DNA from: a virus
UHGV virus genome: UHGV-0183032
DNA: 16,673 nucleotides
Direction: 5' to 3' (one strand)
The notes below the pieces were generated by a model. The model worked only from the letters and a program-made list of their open reading frames with translations. It was not told where the DNA came from and searched no databases. Below, one piece after another: positions 10,354-16,673 of the stretch. Made by a program: the position numbers and the translations under genes. Every line of letters starts with the position of its first letter. Position 1 is the stretch's first letter.

Positions 10354-10388
10354 TTTTCTACCCTCCGCATCGTTCTCTCTTCAGCTTC

Positions 10389-10417
10389 TTTATAACAAAA
10401 TGGCACTGCCGAAACAA
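10389..10417 (-). promoter_or_regulatory. Candidate sigma70 promoter with extended -10 (minus strand)
   Basis: Minus strand TTGTTT, 17-nt spacer, TGt-TATAAA. Predicted start near 10382, about 30 nt before the RBS of the 10353 gene. Confidence 0.35.
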
Positions 10418-10425
10418 TGCCATTT
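10397..10425. repeat. Inverted repeat AAATGGCA-N12-TGCCATTT overlapping the candidate promoter (operator-like)
   Basis: Perfect 8-bp arms with 12-nt spacer. A GCCATTT-type motif recurs in the 16.4 kb and 6.8 kb gaps. Confidence 0.45.
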
Positions 10426-10434
10426 CGTAAACCT

Positions 10435-10450
10435 TGTGATACAGATCACA
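10435..10450. promoter_or_regulatory. Near-consensus CRP-type binding site (TGTGA-N6-TCACA)
   Basis: TGTGATACAGATCACA with flanking TT...TTT, matching the core of the Enterobacterial CRP consensus. Centred about 60 bp upstream of the predicted start. Confidence 0.4.
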
Positions 10451-10451
10451 T

Positions 10452-13420: not shown

Positions 13421-13725
13421 TGCTCGACCCACCTTAACATCCAATTCACATCACATTTAATTGCGAATACTCTCACCGGATCAGTGCCGAATAATGGATG
13501 TGTGATAGTTTTCACTTCGTACCCAAAATAAGGAAGGTTAATAATCCTGTGTTTTTCGTGGTTGGCAGGGTATCCCCATTTAATAATCAGGCGCTCATAT
13601 TCCCGCCCTTCCAGACGTTTACGCCAATAGTCATTATAAAGCCGGTATTCCTCCACCTTCTTTCCCGCCCGGATAGCGTGGAAATATTCCCCTTTCAGAT
13701 TCAAATGCAGGTCTTTACTTGCCAT
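13417..13725 (-). CDS. Possible ASCH/PUA-like fold protein, about 102 aa
   Basis: Start chosen at ATG 13725 (AGGA 8 nt upstream); the track start at 13761 is TTG. N-terminus LHLNLKGEYFHAIRAGKKVEEYRL resembles the ASCH/DUF3850 signature from memory. Confidence 0.5.
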   Translation of the reverse strand: MASKDLHLNLKGEYFHAIRAGKKVEEYRLYNDYWRKRLEGREYERLIIKWGYPANHEKHRIINLPYFGYEVKTITHPLFGTDPVRVFAIKCDVNWMLRWVEQ

Positions 13726-16107: not shown

Positions 16108-16284
16108 TTATTTTTGATTCTCTGTTTCGTTCAGCCTTTCGGCGTGTCCGGCCCTTAGCCAATGTTCTAAGCATTCGTTGCACTCGTTACAGCCTCCCTT
16201 CTTCGTGCTGCATACATTGCACATTGCACGCATGACGCTTTCTCGTTCATAGTCGTCATGCCATTGGTAATTTTCGAAAGACAT
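16108..16284 (-). CDS. Small Cys-rich zinc-ribbon-like protein (NinF-like position), 58 aa
   Basis: Found by hand, codons verified. Cys pattern CNVC-x6-CNECNEC. Sits just upstream of ninG. Preceded by RBS AAAGGAGAG. Confidence 0.5.
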   Translation of the reverse strand: MSFENYQWHDDYERESVMRAMCNVCSTKKGGCNECNECLEHWLRAGHAERLNETENQK

Positions 16285-16360
16285 AATGCTCTCTCCTTTT
16301 CAGGTGATTTCTACGCATTTCAGCGCTGCCGGATTTTTAAAGAGCATTTTGTTTGCTTGA

Positions 16361-16388
16361 AGTATACAAAATGGATACGTCATAACAA
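16361..16388 (-). promoter_or_regulatory. Candidate sigma70 promoter driving the NinF-like/ninG/rusA/Q-like unit
   Basis: Minus strand TTGTTA, 16-nt spacer, TATACT, inside a 159-bp gap; predicted start near 16354. Confidence 0.35.
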
Positions 16389-16405
16389 GACGAAAAGCGC
16401 CATTA

Positions 16406-16420
16406 TGTGATCCACATCAC
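16406..16420. promoter_or_regulatory. Near-consensus CRP-type site (TGTGA-N6-TCACg), flanked by GCGCCATT/ACGCCATTTT repeats
   Basis: TGTGATCCACATCAC matches 9 of 10 core positions. Centred about 60 bp upstream of the predicted start, the same spacing as the 10.4 kb site. Confidence 0.4.
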
Positions 16421-16443
16421 GCAATGACGCCATTTTGTAAACT

Positions 16444-16673
16444 TTAGTCCGGTAAAACGCGGTTGAGCGTAGTACGATTGATGGCCCGGTCGTTAGCCAG
16501 GAATACAGCACGGGCAAAGCCGCGCGGCGTTAGTGAGCGGATCATCTTAGTGCGCTTCGACTTTCCGCCTAACTTCGCGTGCTGCTTACTGTCTTCCCAT
16601 TCATCTGGCATCGGCACAGGCCGGAATAGCGGCTGGGTTAAAACCATCCCCCCCCAAAAAAAATCCAGCAAAA
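16444..16673 (-). CDS. Hypothetical protein, at least 67 aa, with basic C-terminal half; 5' end may lie beyond the window
   Basis: Frame is open to the window edge. First ATG at 16647 is abutted by a G8-T8 homopolymer (minus strand), so the true start is unresolved; the track start at 16671 is TTG. Confidence 0.45.
   Translation of the reverse strand, partial: LLDFFWGGMVLTQPLFRPVPMPDEWEDSKQHAKLGGKSKRTKMIRSLTPRGFARAVFLANDRAINRTTLNRVLPD

Follow-up and report, generated by a model that had tools for sequence, protein, structure and literature searches.

The window analysed here, i.e. the whole 16,673-nt stretch of UHGV virus genome UHGV-0183032, contains a non-coding stretch that we refer to as gap A (16285-16443) and that is surrounded by genes on the minus strand. 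On its upstream side lies the 3' end of a DNA cytosine methyltransferase gene homologous to mEp021 gp33 (16444-16673, minus strand; stop codon TAA at 16446-16444), and on its downstream side a ninF-like ORF of 58 aa (16108-16284, minus strand), which is the first gene of a unit with the order ninF-ninG-resolvase-Q and with the Q-like gene at 14905-14177 on the minus strand. The label "nin/Q unit" that an earlier, sequence-only reading of this DNA had given to the genes downstream of gap A is thus correct. Over the gap A region, the window is 87-96% identical to seven coliphages of the mEp021 group (mEpimmI phages) in the phage collection and likewise to 35 E. coli prophages and, judged by its sequence, it is a phage of this group. 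Among isolates from human faeces, mEpimmI phages are reported to occur as frequently as lambdoid phages (PMC11893012). Searching the whole window against Rfam gave zero families, and no relatives of ninF were found among 185,579 species genomes. A small ORF in gap A that is annotated in MagusPhagus and mEp554 was rejected as a gene: the 31 variants encode products of 3, 17, 31, 35 or 37 aa, and one of them carries a frameshift. Inside the methyltransferase ORF and near the edge of the window, a T8G8 homopolymer is present (16664-16649, minus strand) where a relative reads TTTTTGGGGGTGG; this tract could be slippage-prone or a sequencing artefact.

Gap A contains a palindrome of the CRP-consensus type. 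On the minus strand it reads CGTGAT-GTGG-ATCACA (CGTGATGTGGATCACA; 16421-16406, centre at 16413.5) and on the plus strand TGTGATCCACATCACG (16406-16421), which matches nine of the ten positions of the TGTGA-N6-TCACA core, as the sequence-only reading had proposed; the two flanks that it had pointed out, AAAAGCGCCATT (16393-16404) and ACGCCATTTT (16427-16436), are present and both contain GCCATT. Counted by matches to the consensus, cores with at most one mismatch occur three times in the window compared to 0.41 expected, a number that is attained in 3 of 200 shuffles. GTGA-N6-TCAC is found three times in the window compared to 0.115 expected (0 of 400 simulations) and seven times in the whole mEp021 genome (MH706966) compared to 0.58 expected, i.e. 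approximately 12-fold enriched, and in both cases the enrichment is seen at the N6 spacing only. A CRP-like site in a coding region (13501-13516; TGTGATAGTTTTCACT) was set aside because it is not conserved in relatives.

Promoter scanning identifies TTGTTA-16-TATACT on the minus strand (16388-16361), with a predicted -35 element TTGTTA at 16383-16388 and a predicted -10 element TATACT at 16361-16366. With the start predicted at 16354-16352, the centre of the palindrome falls at -59.5 to -61.5, in agreement with the distance of about 60 bp that had been claimed. A weak -35 element is typical of activator-dependent promoters. The palindrome fits the CRP consensus and, relative to the predicted start, has the position of a class I CRP site, such sites being centred near -61.5 or displaced from there upstream by whole helical turns. 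A role of CRP at gap A is plausible. The hexamer match alone is not above chance, the window containing 21 such matches compared to 28.8 in shuffles.

To follow conservation, loci were retrieved without using the motif, i.e. via the ninF gene for gap A and its counterparts (class A) and via a flanking gene for two paralogous classes (B and C). In class A, which comprises 41 loci with 31 distinct sequences, GTGA-N6-TCAC is kept in 41/41 while the central 4 nt take ten forms, and the full 10/10 CRP core is present in 17 of the 41; a divergent class A prophage reads GTTACA in the palindrome. TTGTT and TATACT are each invariant in 41/41, and there are zero indels between the palindrome and TTGTT in any of these loci. 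The only near-saturated positions are the palindrome loop and the stretches flanking the -35 element, leaving TTGTT as an island between two hypervariable patches. This pattern fits the footprint of a promoter, in which the -35 and -10 elements would not vary while bases that the polymerase does not contact would be free to change. A mini-hairpin around TTGTT was also considered and rejected as unsupported, being only 55-68% paired.

The palindrome is at the same time the inner stem of a 36-nt imperfect hairpin (GGCGUCAUUG-C-GUGAU-GUGG-AUCAC-A-UAAUGGCGCU, then UUUCGUCUUGUU; 16396-16431, minus strand) with a dG of -19.9 kcal/mol and a z of -5.0, and in the window this hairpin is followed by a U-rich run (UUUUCGUCUUGUU / UUUUCGUC). 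The hairpin corresponds to the predicted terminator TERM_4 (t4) in the GenBank record of mEp021, where TransTermHP gives it a score of 79; t4 of mEp021 is listed as predicted only (PMC11893012). ARNold-based annotation of five sister genomes contains no terminator in gap A, the terminator scan of the window does not call the gap A hairpin, and the U-run is swapped for UAUUCACC or CAUUCACC in mEp021 and in two class A loci (L032 and L005). Among the 31 class A sequences, RNAalifold and a count of pairs detect zero compensatory pairs in the hairpin, the stems being near-invariant and the shuffle control equal to the observed value; for a long-range ACAAAAUGG/CCAUUUUGU pairing the stems do not vary and covariation is hence uninformative. 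When the inner stem is compared over classes A to C and the divergent class A prophage, roughly nine in ten substitution events leave a G.U pair intact on the sense RNA. These wobble-compatible changes may reflect a constraint on the RNA; they still strike CRP-contact bases.

Downstream of the predicted promoter lies nutR2, which, like the TERM_4 hairpin, the sequence-only reading had overlooked inside gap A. The published location of nutR2 is downstream of the methyltransferase gene (PMC11893012). In the window the boxA region TGCTCTTTAAAAATCCGG (16346-16329, minus strand), with TGCTCTTTAAAAA as boxA, precedes boxB, a stem-loop whose loop is rich in A, GCGC-UGAAAU-GCGU (16326-16313, minus strand), which is the arrangement of lambda-type nut sites. 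The boxA region shares with nutL the 17-mer GCTCTTTAAAAATCCGG, which in mEp021 is found in nutR2 and nutL only. The boxB stem pair is kept: G.U is replaced by A-U in four sequences and by C-G in E. coli RM9245 (L163 640-615, minus strand), in which boxB reads CCGC-UGAAAU-GCGG, and this two-sided compensatory change supports the boxB stem. Antitermination by Gp17 together with Nus factors at the mEp021 nut sites is attributed to Valencia-Toxqui 2023 as cited in PMC11893012, and the need for three nut sites puzzled those who described the mEpimmI phages (PMC11893012). In mEp021, nutL and nutR1 are each found approximately 41-42 nt downstream of a predicted promoter, a pattern that a promoter before nutR2 would match; unlike nutL and nutR1, nutR2 would start only about 9 nt from the predicted gap A start. 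Approximately 290 nt downstream of the predicted gap A promoter, a terminator-like hairpin with a T8 run was detected by the terminator scan in the first codons at the 5' end of ninG (16063-16045, minus strand). Transcripts from the gap A promoter would encounter no barrier before this one, and in mEp554 it is annotated by ARNold as terminator T7.

The sequence-only reading had argued that gap A shares its architecture with a second gap. This holds, the architecture is conserved in position, and it extends to a third class of cassettes. In gap B (10389-10450, minus strand), a perfect palindrome TGTGATCTGTATCACA (10450-10435) is followed by a forward copy of a motif that we refer to as M1 (10429-10420), TTGTTT (10417-10412), CCATTTTG (10403-10396) and TATAAA (10394-10389); CCATTTTGTTATAAA, which parallels the promoter-proximal sequence of gap A, is present as well, and the spacing between the palindrome and TTGTT is 17 nt as in gap A. 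A second hairpin in gap B (10428-10395) corresponds to an ARNold terminator of mEp044. The shared cassette can be written as palindrome-17 nt-TTGT-10 nt-CCRTTTTG-(-10) and was found only in the mEp021 phage group. The search pattern GTGAT-N4-ATCAC-N18-TTGT-N10-CCRTTTTG matches 56 stretches in IMG/VR, mostly on contigs of 50-57 kb and often two or three times per contig, and many of these contigs are the same as those with the ninF-based loci. The cassettes fall into three positional classes between which the 17-nt stretch differs in sequence and is constant in length: class A precedes nutR2 and ninF (gap A), class B (gap B) is located between Q and the holin gene, where the sequence is variable, and class C precedes the homologue of mEp021 gp26, reading CGTGATTGCGATCACA-17 nt-TTGTG-9 nt-CCGTTTTG-TAAACT in mEp021 itself.

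Outside class A the palindrome is less constant. While CCRTTTTG is kept in all 19 class B loci and all 44 class C loci, GTGA-N6-TCAC is intact in 13/19 and 26/44, the palindrome being lost or mutated at CRP-contact bases in the other six and 18 loci, respectively. Five distinct class B variants are without its right half, the class C variants read GTAAT, ATTAC, ATCAT or GTGGT/ATCGC, and the -10 element of class C varies as well (TAAACT, TAAGCC, TGAACT). Since the palindrome is dispensable or altered in the paralogous classes, CRP is not what defines the cassette family. For the proposal that one factor co-regulates the two gaps, the shared architecture speaks in favor and the inconstancy of the palindrome speaks against CRP as that factor; the conservation in related phages on which the proposal was made to depend is found for the palindrome core throughout class A and only in part in classes B and C. 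The neighbors of class A and class C are fixed whereas class B is found in at least four different upstream and at least three different downstream contexts, and the gap B cassette (10354-10451; homologues L144-L161 and L004) is thus a marker of junctions in the mosaic, variable stretch from Q to the holin gene. In class C (mEp021 16520-16580; L101-L143), a second pairing is open to the right half of the palindrome, namely with TGTGATCGCA, which lies downstream and overlaps the -35 element, and this alternative hairpin displays one compensatory change, A-U to G-C, in two loci (L124 and L101).

The promoter-proximal CCATTTTGT of gap A is one copy of M1 (TACAAAATGG / CCATTTTGTA), an intergenic motif that occurs genome-wide. 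Its core ACAAAATG is the most common 8-mer in mEp021 with 17 copies compared to 2.3 expected, and 16 of the 17 are intergenic in a genome of which 12.4% is intergenic (P = 4e-14). Each of the five divergent intergenic regions contains M1, which is also found next to the -35 elements of the predicted PR and PL promoters and, in every cassette, at -21 to -13. Between gp81 and gp82 of mEp021 there is a perfect palindrome of 15 bp, TATACAAAATGTATA. The copies in the window are at 16441-16430, 16374-16365, 10429-10420 and 10404-10394. In gap A, the upstream copy (TTTACAAAATGG; 16430-16441, minus strand) is complementary to the promoter-proximal CCATTTTGT, and the promoter-proximal copy (CCATTTTG; 16367-16374, minus strand) covers approximately -21 to -13 and runs into the -10 element. 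The published description of these phages defines no operators (PMC11893012). On the basis of motif distribution, M1 appears to be a better candidate than the CRP palindrome for the element through which a shared regulator might act on the gaps.

Combining the conservation footprint and the fixed geometry of the cassette with the identity of nutR2, we suggest, with a confidence that falls somewhat short of even, that gap A is an internal early promoter that is probably assisted by CRP and that feeds nutR2 and Q. Along the minus strand, the order of elements would be the hairpin with the CRP palindrome as its core, the putative sigma-70 promoter TTGTTA-16-TATACT, M1 (CCATTTTGTA) filling -21 to -10, and nutR2 from about +9. 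In this model, RNA polymerase would start near 16354, which corresponds to approximately position 20163 of mEp021 (MH706966), and cAMP-CRP bound at approximately -60.5 would help to recruit it in a class I manner. The new RNA would carry boxA and boxB at once, and the N-like Gp17 together with Nus factors would convert the polymerase to a termination-resistant form; nut function itself has been published, and the use of nutR2 by transcripts from gap A is our proposal. The modified polymerase would pass the terminator-like site in ninG and reach the Q gene, whereas unmodified transcripts would stop at 16063-16045 before Q. The hairpin would be formed only in RNA coming from upstream, with a possible function there in weak termination or as a 3' structure (t4). 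The invariant TTGTT and TATACT with free flanks and the 17-nt spacing fixed in three classes argue for an internal promoter. Against it speak the hexamer match that is not above chance and the -10 element that is not conserved in class C; moreover, an unrepressed promoter before Q would be risky for a prophage. CRP and sigma-70 alone would also leave the strong conservation of CCATTTTG in the spacer and of the outer arms of the hairpin unexplained.

Alternatively, gap A may act at the level of RNA. The rightward early transcript would then form a hairpin, with the palindrome as no more than its inner stem, that is followed by nutR2 and that functions as t4 or in processing or stability; there would be no promoter and CRP would be irrelevant. 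The coincidence of TERM_4 with the hairpin in mEp021, the low folding energy and z with UUUUCGUCUUGUU downstream, and the nearly complete wobble compatibility of stem substitutions on the sense strand are all as expected from such a function, as are the ARNold call on the second hairpin of gap B in mEp044 and the one true compensatory pair, which is in the alternative hairpin of class C. However, ARNold is silent on gap A in the five sister genomes, as is the scan of the window, the U-run is broken in three sequences, and the 31 class A sequences contain no compensatory pair in stems that are too invariant to provide support. In addition, the class B and C palindromes would form weak hairpins of 5-6 bp that are A/U-rich and without a U-run, and the invariant TTGTT/TATACT islands and the spacing that is constant across classes would be unexplained. 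We consider this model unlikely. We rate as doubtful the model in which the shared regulator is a putative M1-binding factor, perhaps the repressor of the phage, a protein similar to Cro or a regulator of another kind, and in which the CRP palindrome is an accessory that can be lost. The excess of the M1 core in intergenic DNA, its copies in all intergenic regions between divergent genes, at the predicted PR and PL -35 elements and in every cassette, the perfect palindrome TATACAAAATGTATA at gp81/gp82, and the full conservation of CCRTTTTG in classes B and C where the palindrome is not conserved are in line with such a factor; against it, there are copies that include part of a start codon context (AAAATGG) or that could form RNA stems by pairing, and the orientation of the motif and its distance to genes vary. 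An M1-binding factor is compatible with the internal promoter and does not exclude it.

Two further models were weighed in terms of who, if anyone, reads the palindrome. The 12-fold enrichment of GTGA-N6-TCAC genome-wide and the many small ORFs of unassigned function could be taken to indicate a phage-encoded DNA-binding protein with CRP-like specificity that binds the palindrome in place of host CRP. No gene of the CRP family or other candidate is annotated in mEp021, the immunity region is without such a palindrome, the site fits host CRP even at T6 and A11 of the 16-bp core, and the copy in a coding region of the window lacks conservation, all of which make this very unlikely in our view. 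A chance resemblance without function, for which the commonness of promoter-like hexamers could be invoked, is hardly credible in view of a core that is invariant in 41 loci beside saturated positions, an enrichment that is restricted to the N6 spacing and a 54-nt architecture that occurs three times per genome.

Returning to the internal promoter that we favor, gap A shares with class I CRP promoters such as lac P1 a consensus-like site near -61.5 (relative to the predicted start), a weak -35 element and a good -10 element; it differs in that the site lies within a longer hairpin, that the spacer contains an extra conserved motif, that the paralogues tolerate loss of the site and that the start is predicted only. 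As in lambda PL-nutL and PR-nutR, a nut site would lie just downstream of an early promoter from which N-modified polymerase passes terminators toward Q. Gap A would differ from PL and PR as an internal third promoter with the nut site from about +9. For lambda PL/PR, control by host CRP has to our knowledge not been described. The same locus is known in mEp021 as nutR2/t4, where t4 is predicted by one program in one genome, and PMC11893012 mentions no promoter, CRP site or cassette family there. Of these features, nutR2 and the predicted t4 were already known. The literature examined contains no description of the promoter, of the CRP-type site, of a cassette in three classes or of M1. The conserved combination of a stem-loop and a promoter that is repeated in intergenic regions is reminiscent of the PeSL cassettes of T4-like phages, which are composites of terminator and promoter (PMC2839356, PMC4122927). 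In this respect gap B is alike, its cassette being placed where small genes that are unrelated to each other adjoin in a hyperplastic region. The likeness is architectural only: the gap cassettes are unrelated to PeSLs in sequence, belong to a temperate siphovirus, occupy only three positional classes and have an added CRP palindrome and M1. A precedent is coliphage T1, in which more than one promoter is under direct control of host cAMP-CRP, i.e. those of pir, dam and recE; there CRP represses, as shown experimentally (PMC6737242), whereas for gap A it is activation that the geometry suggests. If real, gap A would be a CRP-assisted promoter inside a PeSL-like cassette.

If the model is correct, a third early promoter would explain the third nut site of the mEpimmI phages, and a CRP site on this promoter would provide a direct route from the carbon status of the host to late-gene expression. 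M1 points to an undescribed operator network in the mEpimmI group. More speculatively, and with a probability that we consider decidedly low, mEpimmI phages may possess a small regulon of mobile promoter cassettes that are read by host CRP and an M1-binding phage protein, one of the cassettes being a third early promoter to which a nut site of its own belongs and through which the catabolite state of the host would gate the expression of Q and hence the timing of lysis.

Elsewhere in the window, the minus strand at 8224-8119 contains TTGTAG-17-TAAAAT, which resembles a late promoter; a strong terminator (8161-8143) comes about 35 nt after it, and the holin gene is next. This layout is the counterpart of mEp021 t5 and recalls the arrangement of lambda PR'-tR'; the region is probably the site at which the Q-like protein acts.
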